Source of the DNA: an uncultured Pseudomonadales bacterium
GTDB lineage: Bacteria; Patescibacteriota; Microgenomatia; UBA1400; PJMF01
DNA: 27,963 nt
Assembly (NCBI GenBank): GCA_964519685.1
Contig: CAZFIY010000001.1
Span: 1 to 27,963 of the forward strand
Direction: 5' to 3'
A program made the position numbers and the translations under genes. The notes below the pieces were generated by a model. It was given only the letters and a program-made list of their open reading frames with translations, did no database searches and was not told where the DNA came from. Positions 2 through 15,553 of the stretch are shown here, piece after piece; positions within the stretch are counted from its first letter, which is position 1, and each line of letters begins with the position of its first letter.

Positions 2-886
2 ATTGCTATGGGTTTGATGTCTGATGGTGAAAAATTTGTCGTTCTTTCAGATATTCAAGGTTTAGAAGATCACGTTGGCGACATGGACTTCAAAGTAGCT
101 GGTACCAAGGAAGGTATTACTGCTATTCAAATGGATATCAAACTTAAGGGTATTCCAAAAGAAATTTTAGTTCAGGCTTTAGGTCAAGCTCGCGAAGGTC
201 GTTTGCATATTATGGGCGAAATGATGAAATGCATTGCGCAGCCGAGAACGACCTTAAGTCCTTATGCTCCAAAAGTTGCTCAAGTCACTATTCCAGCGGA
301 AAAAATTGGTGCCGTGATTGGTACTGGTGGCAGCGTCATTAAAGATATCATTGAAAAGTCTGGTGCAGAGGTCAATGTTGAAGAAGACAAAGAAAACAAG
401 ACTGGCGTCATTAATGTTTCTTCTCCAGATCAAGCTGCCATTGATAAAGCAATGAAGATGATTGAAGACATCACTAGAGAAGTCAAAGTTGATGATGAAT
501 TTGATGGTACCGTCACTCGTGTTGAAGGATACGGCGTTTTTGTCGAATTTTTACCAGGACGCGAAGGTTTGGTGCATGTTTCCAATATGTCTTCTGAATA
601 TGTTAAAGATGCCAATGATCTCTATCACGTCGGTGACAGTGTTCACGTGCGTGTCAAAGAATACAATCCAGAGGGAAAAATTGCTTTAACCATGCTAACT
701 GCAGAACAAGAAGCCGAGCAGAAAGAAAAAGCAGCTGCTCGCGGTGACAGAGAAGACAATGGTCGCGGCAATGGAGGCAATGGTGGTTATGGCGGTCGCT
801 CAAATTTTAATGGTCGAGGTGGAGATCGTTATCAAAGACGTCCTTCTTTTGGAGGTCGTGGTAATGATGGTGGCAGAAGATACTAA
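2..886 (+). CDS. pnp: Polyribonucleotide nucleotidyltransferase (PNPase), 3' part; gene starts before the window
   Basis: GDMDFKVAGTKEGITAIQMDIK (RNase PH domain 2), KH motif IGAVIGTGGSVIK, S1 domain (GVFVEFLPGREGLVHVS), then a Gly/Arg-rich tail. The frame is open to the window edge. Confidence 0.97.
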   Translation: MAMGLMSDGEKFVVLSDIQGLEDHVGDMDFKVAGTKEGITAIQMDIKLKGIPKEILVQALGQAREGRLHIMGEMMKCIAQPRTTLSPYAPKVAQVTIPAEKIGAVIGTGGSVIKDIIEKSGAEVNVEEDKENKTGVINVSSPDQAAIDKAMKMIEDITREVKVDDEFDGTVTRVEGYGVFVEFLPGREGLVHVSNMSSEYVKDANDLYHVGDSVHVRVKEYNPEGKIALTMLTAEQEAEQKEKAAARGDREDNGRGNGGNGGYGGRSNFNGRGGDRYQRRPSFGGRGNDGGRRY

Positions 887-8935: not shown

Positions 8936-9442
8936 ATGAAAAAACTATTTTTTCTTTTATCTTTTTTGTCGTTCACCTTTTTATTTGCAGGTGCAGCTCG
9001 TGCTTTGGAATTAACTAAAATTGGTACAACAGATTTAACTGGTCAGGGTATTGGTTCGACTGTTTCTGCTTATACTTATAATCTACGTTCTTTTAGTCTT
9101 TATGGTTTATCGACGGCATCTAGTTCAGTGGCGATTAAAATTGATGATGTTACTTATAACGCTACGGCTAATCAAGCAGGTGAATGGTCCACTTATTTAT
9201 CAAATCTTACCTATGATGATCACGTTGCAGTAATTAGTGCTCCAGATCAAACTAGCTTAAATTTTACTTTGAAAATCAGTTCTGCCGCAGCCACTCCCAC
9301 CGCTACTCCAACTGCTACGCCAACGGTAGCCACTACTACTAGTTCTTTACCTAGTGCTGGTACCACAGAAAATACTTTCTTAATTGCAGCTTTGGCTTTA
9401 CTGTCCCTAGGACTAGGTGTGGCGATCAAGTATAGAGATTAA
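8936..9442 (+). CDS. Secreted Ig-like (Big) domain protein with Pro/Thr linker and C-terminal LPSAG sortase-type sorting signal
   Basis: Signal peptide MKK-hydrophobic-ARA; Ig-like beta pattern (VAIKIDDVTYNATANQAGEWS); ATPTATPTATPT; LPSAG at 9347-9361, hydrophobic helix, KYRD tail. Confidence 0.8.
   Translation: MKKLFFLLSFLSFTFLFAGAARALELTKIGTTDLTGQGIGSTVSAYTYNLRSFSLYGLSTASSSVAIKIDDVTYNATANQAGEWSTYLSNLTYDDHVAVISAPDQTSLNFTLKISSAAATPTATPTATPTVATTTSSLPSAGTTENTFLIAALALLSLGLGVAIKYRD
9292..9340 (+). repeat. Degenerate 12-nt tandem repeat encoding the (TPTA)n/Thr-rich linker
   Basis: Three copies of TPTA/TPTV followed by ACTACTACT. Confidence 0.7.
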
Positions 9443-9453
9443 TTTTTATAAAT

Positions 9454-10512
9454 ATGTCAGATTTCCGCGAACTTCTCAATCAAGAGATTGCTTCTTTGTC
9501 AGCAAAAATTGAACAAGGTGAATTGCCAGATGAAATGCGCTATCAATTAAAAAAAGAGGTAGTAGCTTTGGAGCGTAGCGTAGAAATAGGTAATTATGAT
9601 GAGAAATATGAAAAAGTTTCTCGTTACATAGACTGGTGTTTGCGCATTCCTTTTGGTAAGAAAACCGAAGATACGTTAGACGTAGTCAAAGCTCAAGAAA
9701 TTTTTGATCAGCACCATTTTGGCATGCAGGAAGTGAAGAATCGTTTTTTAGAATATCTAGCAGTGCTCAATTTACAGAAAAATAATCTTCAGGATGAGAA
9801 ATTTTCTGCTCCAATTTTATTTTTGGTTGGTTTAGTGGGTACTGGTAAGACGACTTTTGCTTATTCGTTAACTGAAGCTTTGGGTCGTAAACTAGTGCGT
9901 ATTCCTTTTGGTGGTATGGGTAGCGCTAAGGAATTAAGAGGCAACTCGCGTTTATTACTTGGTTCTGAACCAGGAAAAATCCTTAAGGGTGTCTGTGAAG
10001 CTGGAGTAATGAATCCGATTATTTTACTTGATGAAATTGATCGTGCAACTGATGAATCCAACATGGATATTATGGGTGTTTTAGTTGAGTTATTAGATCC
10101 TGCTCAGAATCATGCTTTTACTGATGATTACATTAATTATCCAATCGATCTTTCACAAGCTATCTTTTTAGCTACAGCCAATAACACTCGTAAAATTGCT
10201 ACAGCAGTGATGGATCGTATGGAAAAGATTGATATGCCTTCTTATACCGATGATGAAAAGGTAGCAATTGCTAAGAAATACGTAATGCCGAAAGTGCTAA
10301 AAGAAGTCGGTTTGAAATCAGAACAATTTGTCATTCGCGAAGAAATGTGGCCCAAAATGGTTCGTCCATTAGGTTTTGATGCTGGTATTCGTACCTTGCA
10401 ACGCACTATTCAAGGTGCAGCTCGTAAGGCGGCACGTATTATTGTGGAAGGTAAATACGATAAAGTAGAAATTGGTCCAGATAATTACAAAATTTTCTTA
10501 CCATCTTACTAA
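9454..10512 (+). CDS. Lon-type AAA+ ATPase lacking both the N-terminal LAN domain and the C-terminal protease domain
   Basis: YIDWCLRIPFG, HHFGMQEVKNRFLEYLAV, Walker A GLVGTGKTT, Walker B ILLDEID, LLDPAQNHAFTDDY, ATAN, Arg finger DRME, GIRTLQR. Ends at 352 aa. Confidence 0.9.
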   Translation: MSDFRELLNQEIASLSAKIEQGELPDEMRYQLKKEVVALERSVEIGNYDEKYEKVSRYIDWCLRIPFGKKTEDTLDVVKAQEIFDQHHFGMQEVKNRFLEYLAVLNLQKNNLQDEKFSAPILFLVGLVGTGKTTFAYSLTEALGRKLVRIPFGGMGSAKELRGNSRLLLGSEPGKILKGVCEAGVMNPIILLDEIDRATDESNMDIMGVLVELLDPAQNHAFTDDYINYPIDLSQAIFLATANNTRKIATAVMDRMEKIDMPSYTDDEKVAIAKKYVMPKVLKEVGLKSEQFVIREEMWPKMVRPLGFDAGIRTLQRTIQGAARKAARIIVEGKYDKVEIGPDNYKIFLPSY

Positions 10513-10521
10513 GTTTTTTCT

Positions 10522-10530
10522 TGATATAAT
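10522..10530 (+). promoter_or_regulatory. Extended -10 promoter of udg (probably leaderless)
   Basis: TGaTATAAT ending 8 nt before ATG 10539, no SD. Confidence 0.6.
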
Positions 10531-10538
10531 CTTTTTTA

Positions 10539-11162
10539 ATGTATTTTACTGATTTAAACACACTCAAAGCTGATCTAGAAAAGAATTTTCAAAATTTCCC
10601 TCTGGTAGAAAAAGTGACAGACTTAGTTCATGGTGAAGGCAATGAGTCAGCTGATATCATGCTGATAGGTGAAGCTCCTGGATATTACGAAAGCGTTGAA
10701 AGGCGACCTTTTGTTGGTCGCTCTGGACAATTACTTCGCAAAGTTTTGGCAGAAAGCGGTTTAAAAGCTGGTCAAGTTTATATTAGCAATATTGTTAAAG
10801 TTAGACCGCCAGACAATCGCGATCCACTACCTCATGAAATTTTAGCCTTTAAACCTTATTTAGATGCGGAAATTGATTTGATTAAACCCAAATTAATTGT
10901 CACTTTAGGTCGTTTTAGCATGGCCAAATTTTTACCTGAAGTAAAAGCTTCTCAGGTTCATGGACGCTTGCACAAGATTAAATGGAATGAAAGAATCCTT
11001 TTTATTTTGCCTATGTATCACCCAGCAGCTGCTTTGCGGGCGACAAAAATCAAAGAGTCTTTTATCAATGATTTTGCTAAAATTGAGAAGATCATTACTT
11101 TTGTACAAACTGCCAAAGACACCGAGGTTTTTAAAGAAACAGTTAAAGAGGCTTTATTATGA
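10539..11162 (+). CDS. Uracil-DNA glycosylase, family 4-like (no cysteines)
   Basis: HGEG, IMLIGEAPG, PFVGRSGQLL, NIVKVRPPDNRDP, IVTLGRFS, MYHPAAAL. Confidence 0.92.
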   Translation: MYFTDLNTLKADLEKNFQNFPLVEKVTDLVHGEGNESADIMLIGEAPGYYESVERRPFVGRSGQLLRKVLAESGLKAGQVYISNIVKVRPPDNRDPLPHEILAFKPYLDAEIDLIKPKLIVTLGRFSMAKFLPEVKASQVHGRLHKIKWNERILFILPMYHPAAALRATKIKESFINDFAKIEKIITFVQTAKDTEVFKETVKEALL

Positions 11163-11192
11163 AGATTATTAAAACAAGAAAGTAAAAAATTT

Positions 11193-12866
11193 ATGATGGA
11201 AAATATGAACAAATTAAAACTTCTTCCTTTAGGTGGCATGGGTGGTGTGACTCAAAACATGTACCTTTATCAATACGAAGAAGAAATTTTACTGGTGGAC
11301 TGTGGAATTGGTTTTCCAGATATGTACATGCCTGGAGTAGATACGCTGATTCCTGATATTAGTTATTTGCAAGATCAGGTAGAAAAAGGTGCCAAAATCG
11401 TTGGTATGATTTTAAGTCATGGTCACGATGATCATATTGGAGCTCTGCCTTATTTATTAGACGATTTACCAGAATTTCCTATTTATGCTTCTCCATTAAC
11501 AGCTGGTTTTGCTCGCGATCGTTTACTAGATAAAAAGCTTGATCGAGAGATTAAGGTAGTGCCTGATAAAGAAATGGTCCAAATTGGTAGACATTTTTCT
11601 TTTGAATTAATTGCCATGACTCATTCAGTACCAGATACGCGTCACATTGTGATTCAAACTCCAGTGGGCAAAATCTATCATGGCAGCGATTTCAAACTTG
11701 ATAAGGCTCCTGTGGATGGGGTTTTATCAGATCTTGATGAGGTTAAAAGAGTGGCAGATCAAGGAATTTTATTAGGCTTAATTGATTGTCTGCGGGTAGA
11801 ACAGGAAACTTGGACCAAATCTGAGTCTTCTATTAAGTCATCACTTGAGGAAGAAATGGCCAATGTCAAAGGCAAGATCTTAGTGACTTTGATGAGTTCG
11901 CACATTCACCGTATTCAACAAGTGATTGATGTTTGTGAGCAGATTGGTCGCCAGGTTGTTTTCGTGGGACGCAGTGTAGAACAAAATGTAGTAGCAGCTA
12001 CTTTACTCAAAAAACTACATATTGAGTCAGGTACGCAGGTTGATAAAAACCACATTAGTGAAGTGCCAGATAATCGACTATGTGTAATTATCGCTGGTAG
12101 TCAGGGGCAGGAGGGTTCTTCGCTGGTGCGAGCCGTTTACGGCGAGCACAGAATTATTCAGATTACTCCTGAAGATAAGGTCATTTTTTCAGCTAATGTG
12201 ATTCCTGGCAATGAGATTAACTATTATGCGGCTATCGACGAATTATCTGCCAACAATGTGGATGTGGTTTATCCAGAAATCAATCGTGGCATTCATGCTT
12301 CTGGTCACGCCAGTAGTCCGGAACAAAAAGAACTTGCCCAACTTTTACAAGCCAAATATTTAATGCCAATTGGTGGCGCTGATCGTCATCGTGCTCTTTT
12401 TGAGAAAAGAGTGGCAGCGGCTTTGAATTATGATCATCGTCATGTTTTATTGCCAAAATCTGGAGAAGTCTTAGGTTTTGATGAAAGCGGAGTCAAAGTG
12501 ATTGATGAAGTTCTGCTCAATGCCAAAGCAGTCGATGGATTAGGCATTGGTGATGTGGGGCCGGTGGTTTTATCTGATCGTTTATCACTTTCCAAAGCCG
12601 GCATCATCGTTTTGGTTATTCCCAGAATTGCTGGCGAATTTGATTTTATGGAAATGAAAGTTGTTTCCAGAGGTTTTGTCTTCATGAAAGAGGCTGATGA
12701 AGTGATTCAATTTATAAAACAGGCAACTGCTGAAATTGTTGGTGAAGACAAACAAAAAATCAAAGATGATGAGCTGAAGAAAAAAATCGAGCGTCGTTTG
12801 GCGAAAAAACTCTACAAAGTTATTCGTCGAGAACCCATCATTGTTCCAGTCTTTATCGAGATGTAA
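11193..12866 (+). CDS. rnj: Ribonuclease J
   Basis: LLPLGGMGGVTQN, SHGHDDHIG (HxHxDH), HSVPD, GSDFKLD, GSQGQ, IHASGHA. Start could also be 11196 or 11205. Confidence 0.95.
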   Translation: MMENMNKLKLLPLGGMGGVTQNMYLYQYEEEILLVDCGIGFPDMYMPGVDTLIPDISYLQDQVEKGAKIVGMILSHGHDDHIGALPYLLDDLPEFPIYASPLTAGFARDRLLDKKLDREIKVVPDKEMVQIGRHFSFELIAMTHSVPDTRHIVIQTPVGKIYHGSDFKLDKAPVDGVLSDLDEVKRVADQGILLGLIDCLRVEQETWTKSESSIKSSLEEEMANVKGKILVTLMSSHIHRIQQVIDVCEQIGRQVVFVGRSVEQNVVAATLLKKLHIESGTQVDKNHISEVPDNRLCVIIAGSQGQEGSSLVRAVYGEHRIIQITPEDKVIFSANVIPGNEINYYAAIDELSANNVDVVYPEINRGIHASGHASSPEQKELAQLLQAKYLMPIGGADRHRALFEKRVAAALNYDHRHVLLPKSGEVLGFDESGVKVIDEVLLNAKAVDGLGIGDVGPVVLSDRLSLSKAGIIVLVIPRIAGEFDFMEMKVVSRGFVFMKEADEVIQFIKQATAEIVGEDKQKIKDDELKKKIERRLAKKLYKVIRREPIIVPVFIEM

Positions 12867-12959
12867 GTTCGCTTGCTACTTGATGAAGATTGTGTGATAC
12901 TTGACTTGTATAAGTGTTTTATGTTATATCCTATAATAATATAAATAAAGTCTTTATTT

Positions 12960-15152
12960 ATGGCAAAATTGTTCAAATCAAGAAAAAGAAAAAAGCGCCA
13001 AGGCATTCGCCTGAAAATGCGCACTGACACCAGCTATTCAGTGGTGGCAGTTTTATTGATTTTGCTTGGCTTATTGGTGGTAATTTCTTTTACTGGTCAA
13101 GGTCAGCTGTTAGTTTTTATCAATGATTTCTTATCTTTGAAATTTGGTTTATCGATGTTTTTTTTGCCCTTTGTTTTTATTTCTGCCGGATTAGTGATGC
13201 TACGCAGCAAACATGCTTGGTCTAAGCCAACTATTCTTTTGGGCACAATTTTATTAATGTTGGGTACTATGGGTATGACCAAGAGTGGTCATCTTGGGGT
13301 CAATATTTTTCATAATTTTGCCAGACTCATCACTGAATCTGGAGCCTATGCTTTCTTTTTAGCGGTGGCTTTGATTGGAGTTTTGGTTTTATCTCAGTCA
13401 TCTTTATTGGAAATCTTTGCTCTTTTGGGTAAATTATTTAAACGTAGCGATAAAGAAAAATTGCCACAAAAAGATCTTTTTGCTGATCAAGTTTCTGAAA
13501 AAGAAATTGCTAAAGCGAAAGGCTTTTCAATTCCCAATTTTGGTTTTGGTTTGCACAAAGACAAAGATTTGAAAACAGGCGAAGCTTTTGCTAAAGAAAT
13601 TGAGCAGGACAATACTTCTGCCAAAGCAATTATTGAAGATGAAGTCAAAAAAGAAGTTGGTGCGGGTTTAGATCAAAAAGAAACTCTCAATGTTTCTTCA
13701 GTACCAATGATGTGGGATTATCCACCTTTGTCTTTGCTTTCCCAGAAATCTGGTGGCAAAGCTGATCGTGGCGATGTGAAGGGCAATGCTTCGATTATTG
13801 AAAACACTTTGGAATCATTTGGTATTCAGGCCAAGGTAGTGGAATATAACCCTGGTCCAGCGGTGACACAGTATGCTTTGGAAATTAACAAAGGTACTCG
13901 TTTGGCTAAAATTACCGCTCTTTCGACTGATTTAGCTTTGGCTTTATCTGCGCCGACTGGGCAGATTCGTATCGAAGCTCCAATTCCTGGTCGTAATTTA
14001 GTCGGTGTAGAAGTGCCAAATCGCAGTGCAGAATATGTCACTCTCAAAACTATGTTGTCAGCCCCAGCGATGAAGAAGCATAAATCTAAATTAGCTGTGG
14101 CTTTAGGTATTGATGTAGCTGGCAATCCAGCGATTGTAGATATTGCCACCATGCCTCATTTACTGATTGCTGGTTCAACTGGTTCTGGTAAATCAGTTTG
14201 TATTAACTCTTTCATGTGCTCGATTCTTTTTAGAGCTACTCCTGAAGAAGTTAAATTTATTTTGGTTGATCCTAAACGTGTCGAGCTGACTGGTTACAAC
14301 GATATTCCTCATCTTTTGACTCCAGTTATTGTCGAGCCTAATAAAGTAGTTTCATCCTTGAAATGGGCTTGTCAAGAAATGGATAAACGCTACAAAATGC
14401 TTTCTGAAGTTGGAGTCAAGAATATTAGTGAATATAACGAATTGGCTGGTTTAGCGACCATGCCAAATATTGTGATTGTGATTGATGAATTGGCTGATGT
14501 GATGCTTTTTGCTCCAGCTGAAGTGGAAGAAAGTGTGACTCGCATTGCTCAAATGGCTCGTGCCGTGGGTATTCACCTGGTTTTAGCCACTCAGCGTCCT
14601 TCAGTTGATGTTTTGACAGGTTTGATCAAAGCTAATGTCCCAACTCGTATTGCTTTTAATGTGGCTTCGATGATGGATAGTCGTGTAATTTTGGATAGTC
14701 CAGGAGCAGAAAAATTACTGGGTCGTGGTGATATGTTATTTCAAGCCACGGATAAACCCAAGCCAGCTCGTGTGCAAGGTACTTTTGTCAGTGCTTCGGA
14801 GACCAATAATTTGATTAGCTTCTTGAAATCTCAGGGTCAAAAACCTCATTATGAAGAAGATATTCTTAATAAGTTTCAATCTGGTAAAGTCAGTGGAGGT
14901 AGTTTGGGCATGGATGCTGGAGGCAACGACATCGATGATAAATGTATTGAGGCCGCTAAGTTATTTTTAACTGCTGATAAAGCTTCCTCTTCTCTGATTC
15001 AAAGACGCCTGTCTGTTGGTTATGCTCGTGCAGCTAGAATTCTCGATCAGTTATATGAAATTGGTCTCGTTGGTCCTCCAGATGGTAGTAAGCCAAGAGA
15101 CGTCAATAATAATAAGATTAGAGAATTTTTGATGAGTAAAGAACAGAGCTAA
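12960..15152 (+). CDS. ftsK: DNA translocase FtsK/SpoIIIE
   Basis: Four N-terminal TM helices, PHLLIAGSTGSGKSV, VDPKRVEL, IDELAD, LATQRPSVDV, gamma domain IQRRLSVGYARAARILDQL. Confidence 0.97.
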   Translation: MAKLFKSRKRKKRQGIRLKMRTDTSYSVVAVLLILLGLLVVISFTGQGQLLVFINDFLSLKFGLSMFFLPFVFISAGLVMLRSKHAWSKPTILLGTILLMLGTMGMTKSGHLGVNIFHNFARLITESGAYAFFLAVALIGVLVLSQSSLLEIFALLGKLFKRSDKEKLPQKDLFADQVSEKEIAKAKGFSIPNFGFGLHKDKDLKTGEAFAKEIEQDNTSAKAIIEDEVKKEVGAGLDQKETLNVSSVPMMWDYPPLSLLSQKSGGKADRGDVKGNASIIENTLESFGIQAKVVEYNPGPAVTQYALEINKGTRLAKITALSTDLALALSAPTGQIRIEAPIPGRNLVGVEVPNRSAEYVTLKTMLSAPAMKKHKSKLAVALGIDVAGNPAIVDIATMPHLLIAGSTGSGKSVCINSFMCSILFRATPEEVKFILVDPKRVELTGYNDIPHLLTPVIVEPNKVVSSLKWACQEMDKRYKMLSEVGVKNISEYNELAGLATMPNIVIVIDELADVMLFAPAEVEESVTRIAQMARAVGIHLVLATQRPSVDVLTGLIKANVPTRIAFNVASMMDSRVILDSPGAEKLLGRGDMLFQATDKPKPARVQGTFVSASETNNLISFLKSQGQKPHYEEDILNKFQSGKVSGGSLGMDAGGNDIDDKCIEAAKLFLTADKASSSLIQRRLSVGYARAARILDQLYEIGLVGPPDGSKPRDVNNNKIREFLMSKEQS

Positions 15153-15154
15153 TG

Positions 15155-15553
15155 TGGAGATGGCGGGTTATGACCCCGCGTCCGTAGCCAGCTGTTTAAA
15201 TAATTTCTACAGATATAGTTTAGTTTTGATTAAAAATCAGCAAGTTACCTAAACAAACTTTTGTTGATTTATCTGCGTTATTTTCTTAGAACTATTTGCA
15301 ACGCAAAGTCAAATAATCCGCCAAGTGACTGAGTTTTCACTTAAATACCTGCATCACTTACACAAATAAATAAATGCCTAAATTAGCAATAAGCTAAAGC
15401 AGGAGCGCGGAAACTGGCAACAAAATTGCTGACAGCAGTCTTTGCTTTTGAGATTATGTTATCGACATTTATTGTCTGGATCTTTTTAACGTCTTTGGTC
15501 CAAAGACAATCTGCCACTATCTAAAAGATGTTACGTCAAAGCAATACATCCCC
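15155..15553 (-). ncRNA. ssrA: tmRNA
   Basis: 5' GGGGAUG pairs with 3' CAUCUCC-A, giving G3.U70. T arm GCGGG/CCCGC preceded by GGAC; 5' UUUGAC. UAAAU-G resume context, then a 27-codon tag ORF (15466 down to 15383) ending PALAYC*. CCA is not encoded. Confidence 0.95.

Follow-up and report, generated by a model that had tools for sequence, protein, structure and literature searches.

Lon is the textbook AAA+ protease, with motor and peptidase fused, and according to a review of the Lon subfamilies every Lon has both an ATPase and a protease domain (PMC9569914). In the LonA of M. taiwanensis, two aromatic pore-loop residues, Tyr397 in pore-1 and Trp431 in pore-2, touch the substrate and are needed for degradation (PMC8503904), and limited proteolysis of E. 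coli Lon leaves a fragment, residues 235-584, that binds ADP and whose crystals show an open helical hexamer (PMC6722904). Here, we describe a gene that encodes such a motor without the peptidase (short Lon hereafter), located on a stretch of 27,963 nucleotides (contig CAZFIY010000001.1 of assembly GCA_964519685.1, forward strand; this whole stretch is called the window below) from an uncultured bacterium of the Patescibacteriota (class Microgenomatia in GTDB). The gene was first noticed in a reading of the sequence alone (the sequence-only reading), which took it for a Lon ATPase module standing free of the protease and N-terminal domains. We find that short Lon belongs to a large, monophyletic family under purifying selection, and that it is a candidate for a protein remodeller that would work without proteolysis.

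The open reading frame (352 aa, with an ATG start, a TAA stop, and six further open codons upstream of the ATG; Table 1) covers the central part of LonA and little else. Against the NCBIfam model of endopeptidase La (TIGR00763), residues 11-336 aligned to model positions 253-570 of 795 (E 9e-91), and the score of 305 bits stayed below the 608-bit cut-off because the N-terminal and protease ends of the model were unmatched. Pfam returned AAA (PF00004) and Lon_lid (PF22667) and gave no match to Lon_C (PF05362) or LON_substr_bdg (PF02190) in the protein, which bears out the lone ATPase module described earlier. Motifs, Pfam, and fold agree on a Lon-type AAA+ module with a Lon lid; the frame stops within the lid-protease linker, so that the S16 Ser-Lys protease domain that defines LonA is missing, as are, at the other end, the N-terminal substrate domain and the full HI(CC) coiled coil. 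Nor did tblastn with the N-domain and protease domain of the LonA encoded in the same genome reveal a remnant of either in the 28-kb window (best E 0.5), and the earlier failure to see a protease remnant by eye therefore holds.

Structural comparison revealed the same boundaries. In a search of solved structures the top matches were all LonA, with B. subtilis 3m6a first (E 2.7e-71), followed by M. taiwanensis, T. thermophilus, E. coli, Yersinia, and human LONP1, the matches to LonA structures ranging to 1e-55. An AlphaFold2 model built from a 57-sequence family alignment (pLDDT 90.3) consists of an N-terminal group of three helices, an alpha/beta domain, and a lid made of helices, and Foldseek aligned it to LonA chains with TM scores of 0.8-0.87 (query-normalised) and to the E. 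coli Lon AAA+ fragment 6n2i with 0.85/0.88 over its whole length. The three-helix bundle matches B. subtilis Lon 8-70, enters TIGR00763 at position 253, and starts where the E. coli proteolytic fragment does (PMC6722904). Over the whole chain, short Lon residues 13-348 align to residues 12-338 of the 344 in that fragment, and these near-identical boundaries indicate that short Lon spans a stable structural unit. A complex prediction for two copies with ATP, run on the family alignment and without controls, scored 0.00 against a mark of 0.42, a value that speaks neither for nor against assembly.

The catalytic apparatus is complete. Motifs were counted in an alignment that combined 61 LonA sequences with 50 short forms, one per genome, and Walker A, Walker B, sensor-1, and the Arg finger, all reported as intact by the sequence-only reading, are indeed present (Table 1), as is the sensor-2 arginine, Arg313 (50/50 short forms). 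Arg255 presumably acts in trans, an assignment made by way of E. coli Lon numbering (R484), and an invariant finger of this kind makes sense only in an oligomer. Around these shared residues the family has signatures of its own. Leu127 in Walker A occurs in 49 of the 50 short forms at a column where 58 of 61 LonA have Pro, Glu172-Pro173 (E-P-G) follows pore-1, and the segment leading into sensor-2 is conserved as R304 (49/50), P305 (49/50), G307 (50/50), [FY]308 (50/50), and D309 (49/50), where LonA has Y (59 of 61), T (59), R (44), and E (61). The window's protein carries all of the family signatures (GLxGxGKT, EPG, M207, and RPxG[FY]D), each found in 49-50 of the 50 members.

Both pore loops depart from LonA. 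The pore-1 counterpart in B. subtilis, M. taiwanensis, and own-genome LonA reads RGHRRTY[IV]GAMPG, and its Thr and Tyr occur in 61/61 LonA; the replacement of Tyr by Leu noted earlier is real, and the pore-2 aromatic, which that note had missed, is replaced as well (by Ser202). In the alignment, M. taiwanensis Tyr397 pairs with Leu168 and Trp431 with Ser202, so that short Lon has neither the Thr-Tyr of pore-1 nor the aromatic-R-G-D-P of pore-2. Across the family, residues 167-169 are variable, with Leu-Leu (here), Leu-His, Gln-Tyr, Ala-Phe, Tyr-Ala, His-Glu, Ala-Ile, and others at the Thr-Tyr columns, though at least one of the three is hydrophobic in 50/50 short forms and F, Y, or W occurs in 24/50. 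Within lineages the tip is stable: it reads SR-L-[LIV]-L-G, near-invariantly, in 110 close relatives and PR-[HY]-E-[IM]-D in 120 Dojkabacteria-type proteins, and hence its variation is not decay. In pore-2, G204, D205, and P206 occur in 61/61 LonA, an aromatic residue remains in 1/50 short forms, and Met207 is specific to the family (49/50).

Table 1. Features of short Lon and of the conserved genes around it (positions in the window; residues numbered in short Lon).
Feature	Position	Strand	Basis
Stand-alone Lon-type AAA+ gene (three-helix bundle, nucleotide-binding domain, lid)	9454..10512	+	Open reading frame, TIGR00763, PF00004/PF22667, PDB, model
N-terminal three-helix bundle, residues 1-64; C-terminal part of LonA HI(CC)	9454..9645	+	Model helices 2-21, 26-45, 48-64
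Walker A GLVGTGKT, residues 126-133	9829..9852	+	G126, G129, G131, K132, T133 in 50/50 short forms
Pore-1 loop RGNSRLLLGSEPG, residues 162-174	9937..9975	+	LonA invariant Thr-Tyr replaced by Leu-Leu
Walker B ILLDEID, residues 189-195	10018..10038	+	D193, E194 in 50/50 short forms
Pore-2 region, residues 197-209	10042..10080	+	LonA [FYW]-R-G-D-P replaced by S-N-M-D-I-M
Sensor-1 Asn243	10180..10182	+	50/50 short forms, 61/61 LonA
Arg finger Arg255 (in VMDRME)	10216..10218	+	50/50 short forms, 61/61 LonA
Family signature R-P-L-G-F-D-A-G-I-R, residues 304-313, ending in sensor-2 Arg313	10363..10392	+	Replaces LonA x-x-Y-T-R-E-A-G-V-R
3' part of pnp (PNPase); ancestral upstream neighbour	2..886	+	TIGR03591 positions 460-686, E 7e-89
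udg (10539-11162), rnj (11193-12866), ftsK (12960-15152); conserved downstream block	10539..15152	+	Pfam

Short Lon is one of many such proteins. A word-indexed protein search (E <= 0.001, comparable length) returned 7446 proteins that match it at comparable length, the best 120 being nearly all exactly 352 aa and the family typically about 350-410 aa long; where homologues were named, they were called "AAA family ATPase" (in Woesebacteria, Pacebacteria, and the Patescibacteria group) or, at JGI, "ATP-dependent Lon protease". The frame ends 0-8 residues after the match in 50/50 short forms (50 genomes), and LonA frames run on for 185-247 residues. Neither Pfam nor NCBIfam has a dedicated model for the family, and a published description of a protease-less Lon family was not found in full-text literature searches, which does not prove that none exists. 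Some members are longer: in the Dojkabacteria-type short Lons (L058-L072 and L077, from Dojkabacteria and relatives; 377-442 aa) the N-terminal stretch is longer and poorly conserved and two residues are inserted in the pore-2 region, and the metagenomic members P0132, P0139, P0144, and P0147 have N-terminal extensions of 100-330 aa, no Pfam domain being found in the extensions of these four or of P0133. Separately, three top-scoring proteins of a library clustered at 50% (P0121, P0123, and P0126; 990-1110 aa) contain two to three tandem AAA + Lon_lid units followed by one Lon_C.

Selection and phylogeny both point to a gene that is kept. The ratio of nonsynonymous to synonymous substitution rates (dN/dS) was 0.029 against a 94%-identical relative and 0.046 against an 89%-identical one, values that are approximate given the high dS (0.9-1.5), and on the same contigs it was lower than for udg, pfkB, LOG, and the LPSAG surface-protein gene and similar to that of RNase J (0.027-0.08). 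Together with the near-fixed length of a large family and the invariant ATPase motifs, this supports the earlier judgement that the gene is not decaying; the two outcomes that the sequence-only reading had named as telling against it, a full-length lon at the locus in relatives and a dN/dS near 1, were not seen. In a quick maximum-likelihood tree (IQ-TREE, LG+C20, 306 columns, 111 rows, unrooted), all 50 short forms, the window's protein among them, fell on one side of a branch with SH-aLRT 100 and all sampled LonA on the other, the own-genome LonA sitting in a 98%-supported clade of 19 Patescibacteria LonA and one unlabelled representative. Grouping within the short-form clade tracks genome taxonomy, which fits vertical descent, and because the tree is unrooted the LonA lineage from which the family arose cannot be named. 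Over the same columns and genome pairs, mean identity was 52% for the short form and 60% for the AAA+ part of LonA. By its sequence, short Lon is unmistakably derived from the Lon AAA+ module and would be an ancient paralogue of LonA.

We surveyed 401 Patescibacteria genomes (E <= 1e-20; in drafts, a protein not found is not thereby absent) to place the family among other proteases. Among the matches listed, to which all survey counts of short Lon and LonA refer, the short form was matched over its full length in 76/401 genomes, a ~400-aa version with an N-terminal insertion occurred in 14 further genomes, mostly of one family (f29, which is Dojkabacteria/WS6 and not Saccharibacteria), and one genome had a copy with a single frameshift. 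About 40 of the ~90 carriers also had a LonA-length match and ~50 had none, 31/401 genomes had LonA only, and 279/401 had neither at this threshold; in the window's class, 23/25 genomes carried an intact short form. A complete genome from this class has a lone frameshift, at ...LDPKQ(N)F..., that breaks short Lon in two (locus L082, G059:C1:553500-558000, ~2150-2170). Both halves are still 82-87% identical to the protein of a congener, so that the break looks like either a homopolymer error in sequencing or a lesion of very recent date.

The accompanying proteases differ between carriers. The window's own assembly (700 kb in 79 contigs, 95.6% complete) encodes FtsH and, on a contig (C13) other than that of short Lon, a complete 795-aa LonA with the canonical GHRRTYVG loop; ClpP and the Clp/Hsl ATPases (ClpX/A/B/C/HslU-type and ClpB_D2-small) were not found in it at that completeness. 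Five single-contig carriers without a LonA match (G352, G174, G191, G198, and G116) have ClpP and Clp ATPases of 700-900 aa, and profile searches of these complete genomes found no Lon N-domain. Some carriers thus combine short Lon with LonA but not ClpP and others with ClpP but not LonA, a complementary pattern that argues against both a split protease half and an obligatory partnership with LonA. Of the two soluble proteases surveyed, LonA and ClpP, neither is common to all carriers, which leaves FtsH or an unrecognised peptidase as a possible partner.

We propose that short Lon would be a functional, free-standing Lon-clade AAA+ ATPase that has kept the three-helix bundle, nucleotide-binding domain, and lid, and that an oligomeric, probably hexameric, ring would hydrolyse ATP at inter-subunit sites and thereby remodel, unfold, or take apart client proteins while leaving them undegraded. 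Parallels would be ClpX or ClpB at work in the absence of a peptidase, and the chaperone-like activity reported for mitochondrial LONP1, which depends on the ATPase and not on the protease. We give a protease-independent remodeller of this kind an even chance, and leave part of the remainder to explanations that have not occurred to us. What the analysis establishes is the domain content, the integrity of the catalytic motifs, the purifying selection, the monophyly of the family, and that it does not depend on LonA, Lon_C, or ClpP. That the protein forms a ring, hydrolyses ATP, has a protein client, and lacks a partner protease is what we infer, the oligomer because of the trans-acting Arg finger and the helical hexamer of the E. 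coli fragment. In pore-1, the lineage-specific hydrophobic tip (Leu-Leu-Leu here) is consistent with a hold on a polypeptide, and the loss of the pore-2 aromatic together with tips that differ by lineage suggests either that the grip is weaker and more generic or that the client is specific and co-evolves, so that grip or substrate would differ from those of LonA. Of the sequence-only interpretation, then, the denial of decay and the "repurposed remodeller or chaperone", still the best reading of a function deduced from sequence, survive, and the split protease and the service to a surface protein, both taken up below, do not.

Several points weigh against this proposal. Lon hexamers are stabilised largely by their protease and N-domains, and since short Lon lacks both, the bare module may not assemble into a ring. 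Missing, too, are the Tyr of pore-1 and the aromatic of pore-2 that M. taiwanensis LonA needs (PMC8503904), and the tips vary, which makes classical threading uncertain. The LONP1 precedent is itself contested: according to one report, its anti-aggregation activity needs the ATPase and not the protease activity (PMC8368198), and according to a recent preprint the chaperone-like activity of LonP1 comes from the N-domain and is ATPase-independent (10.64898/2026.05.06.723147), the N-domain being precisely what short Lon lacks. Finally, FtsH or a peptidase that escapes recognition might yet turn out to cooperate with it.

The gene neighbourhood raises a different possibility, namely that short Lon is a nucleic-acid AAA+ motor tied to PNPase, UDG, RNase J, and FtsK, either as a component of RNA degradation or as a DNA-bound remodeller. 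Bacterial Lon binds DNA, and in a sample of 30 carrier loci with clustered flanking open reading frames, PNPase lay upstream, directly or one gene away on the same strand, in 23/30, and the downstream side was conserved in 24/30 (udg then rnj in 16, rnj in 6, and ftsK in 2), an arrangement shared by most carrier lineages. This block does not depend on short Lon, however. In 20 complete or near-complete genomes without short Lon, pnp-udg-rnj were adjacent in five, from unrelated families (f35, f22, and f58), and udg-rnj(-ftsK) in five more; the order pnp-udg-rnj-ftsK is conserved across unrelated Patescibacteria families (loci L085, L088, L091, L099, and L101), with or without short Lon. The order pnp-udg-rnj-ftsK is an ancestral housekeeping cluster, with short Lon sitting between pnp and udg where it is present, and because the cluster exists without it, the adjacency is inherited synteny and not a dedicated operon. 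Such synteny supports one old origin and vertical descent and yields no functional partner. Further, UDG occurs in 277/401 genomes (a tally that, like that of ClpP below, includes one genome flagged unpublished, G154, on which nothing specific said here depends) against ~90 for short Lon and is absent from at least 11 carriers, and in Dojkabacteria and family f14 the neighbours are others (VirB4/TraC-like ATPase, cysteine desulfurase/class-V aminotransferase, dCTP deaminase, and MetRS), none of them common to the remaining lineages. We therefore regard a nucleic-acid motor as unlikely.

In the window itself, the family position between pnp and udg/rnj is recognisable with pnp displaced: ~8.5 kb separate it from short Lon, with genes for an aldolase-like protein, galU, SOD, rpiB, rpe, LOG, pfkB, the LPSAG protein, and others in between; the position is not universal and is absent in Dojkabacteria. 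Short Lon begins 11 nt after the LPSAG gene (stop at 9442) and ends 26 nt before udg (ATG at 10539), gaps that the sequence-only reading gave correctly. Its suggestion that short Lon serves this surface protein finds no echo elsewhere, as the LPSAG gene stands upstream only in the same family (L009) and in relatives of 88-94% identity, PNPase being the usual upstream gene, and we rejected the LPSAG protein as a partner for that reason. UDG was likewise rejected as a functional partner, being far more widespread than short Lon, missing from several carriers, and adjacent to rnj independently of it, and so was a role in a defence system, for which PADLOC returned only generic AAA matches (E about 1e-9).

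As for transcription, no terminator-like site was found between the LPSAG gene, short Lon, and the start of udg, and the sole plus-strand site of this type before rnj lies inside udg (10908-10925). A perfect extended -10 element, TGATATAAT, at 10522-10530, ends 8 nt before the udg ATG; the consensus promoter scan did not list it because it has no -35. A promoter of its own for udg, as the sequence-only reading had it, is thus a plausible, predicted sequence pattern, and given this element and the lack of a Shine-Dalgarno sequence before udg, the udg mRNA would be leaderless or nearly so.

Returning to proteolysis, short Lon could be the ATPase half of a two-gene protease that docks on a separate peptidase (Lon_C, ClpP, FtsH, or one of another kind), as ClpX does on ClpP or HslU on HslV. 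Split ATPase and peptidase are the rule for Clp and Hsl systems, ClpP is present in all five complete LonA-less carriers and FtsH in the window's own genome, and the LGF in R-P-L-G-F-D superficially resembles the IGF/LGF loops by which Clp ATPases dock on ClpP. The sequence-only reading, too, had entertained half of a split protease. Against this, the own genome has no free Lon_C gene: beyond LonA, only a 527-aa ComM/YifB-like protein on another contig (G000 contig C48; L002 1339-2922), a Lon-protease-like N-terminal domain joined to a Mg-chelatase-type AAA+ domain, gave a (weak) match. Profile searches revealed no real Lon_C in the five complete carriers either, the only matches being of 18-23 bits in 436-470-aa frames of unidentified proteins. 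ClpP, found in 349/401 genomes of the phylum but in 4/25 of the window's class, was not found in the own genome (95.6% complete) or in 21 of those 25, nearly all of which carry short Lon, and hence is not a general partner. Docking on ClpP through the LGF was rejected both for that reason and on position, as the motif lies in the sensor-2 segment of the lid by the nucleotide site, where LonA has YTRE, and not in an exposed docking loop. A two-gene protease is accordingly improbable.

We rate equally low the idea that short Lon modulates LonA, forming mixed hexamers with it or capping its rings and so shifting substrate choice or activity. Both proteins occur in the own genome, in ~40 of the ~90 carriers, and in nearly the whole class (among the matches listed), and the ring-interface elements (Arg finger and sensor residues) are common to both. 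About 50 carriers, however, show no LonA among the matches listed, and the five complete ones have neither LonA nor Lon_C nor a Lon N-domain, so that modulation of LonA cannot be the conserved function of the family; moreover, the paralogues are only 36% identical, are parted by a long, fully supported branch, and are encoded by unlinked genes on different contigs. The last alternative, a recent truncation, pseudogene, or assembly artefact of a normal lon, has nothing beyond the missing domains in its favour and is refuted by the clean start and stop at domain boundaries without N- or P-domain remnant in the window, the identical architecture in 50 genomes and thousands of metagenomic proteins, the dN/dS of 0.03-0.05, and the separate intact LonA.

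The window also holds a tmRNA (15152-15553, minus strand), which matched the Rfam model over its full length (84 bits); ARAGORN reported no tmRNA anywhere in the window. In Mycoplasma/Mesoplasma, where the ssrA degron has 27 residues, there is no soluble AAA+ protease other than Lon (PMC10695633). By analogy, a repertoire of LonA and FtsH in which ClpP was not found may account for a putative long tmRNA tag here. The sequence-only reading thought that short Lon might serve this tag; the full-length LonA of the own genome is the obvious candidate for that task.

If the remodeller reading is right, a conserved peptidase-less Lon motor would reveal a proteolysis-independent job of the Lon ATPase, present in roughly a quarter of the sampled Patescibacteria (among the matches listed), often without any Lon protease. 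It would offer a natural system in which to part the disputed "chaperone" activity of Lon from degradation, would mark an unstudied core component of the minimal proteostasis repertoire in the ultra-small, host-dependent bacteria of the candidate phyla radiation (CPR), and, with its altered pore loops, raises the question of how its ring grips substrate, or what it grips. More tentatively, and at somewhat less than an even chance, short Lon could be a new free-standing Lon-clade unfoldase or disassembly chaperone with non-aromatic, lineage-specific pore loops and without a chamber for degradation. It would then be a core factor of proteostasis that a large branch of the Patescibacteria (Microgenomatia-type lineages and Dojkabacteria) has retained whether LonA or ClpP was kept. 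A bolder variant is that it may have a single co-evolving client, which would explain a pore tip conserved within lineages and different between them. New in this work are the complementary LonA/ClpP pattern, the absence of a Lon protease domain from complete carriers, the account of how both pore loops vary across the family, and the finding that the pnp-udg-rnj-ftsK context is ancestral and independent of short Lon.

Compared with known systems, short Lon is closest to LonA (MEROPS S16, TIGR00763; 3m6a, 4ypl/7fd4, 6u5z, and LONP1), with which it is collinear over bundle, nucleotide-binding domain, and lid at 34-41% identity and shares Walker A/B, sensor-1, Arg finger, sensor-2, and the Lon lid. 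Unlike LonA, it is without the N-terminal substrate domain, most of the HI(CC) coiled coil, and the whole Ser-Lys protease domain, and it replaces the pore-1 Tyr and the pore-2 aromatic and has its own signatures (GLxGxGKT, EPG, M207, and RPxG[FY]D). It is not a LonA by membership, since it has neither of the two defining domains nor the pore-loop signature. Its nearest structural match, 6n2i, is a laboratory fragment of a protease, whereas short Lon is naturally encoded, evolves independently, and has altered pore loops. ClpX without ClpP, ClpB/Hsp104, and the chaperone-like activity of LONP1 follow the logic proposed here, remodelling by a ring ATPase of the HCLR clade without degradation. 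ClpX and ClpB/Hsp104 act as unfoldases without a peptidase and retain the aromatic pore-1 residue; these two belong to other families and LONP1 is a full-length Lon, and all of them keep that residue, unlike short Lon. Nor is any of them a Lon that naturally lacks the protease domain. The exposed IGF/LGF loop and co-occurrence with ClpP that mark ClpX, ClpA, and ClpC are not a feature of short Lon. Finally, LonB, LonC, LonBA, and the Lon-like proteins (BrxL, ComM/YifB, and RadA/Sms) are likewise variations on Lon in which one module is lost, degenerate, or recombined, but they keep the protease or protease-like domain and vary or lose the ATPase, whereas short Lon keeps the ATPase and has dispensed with the protease.

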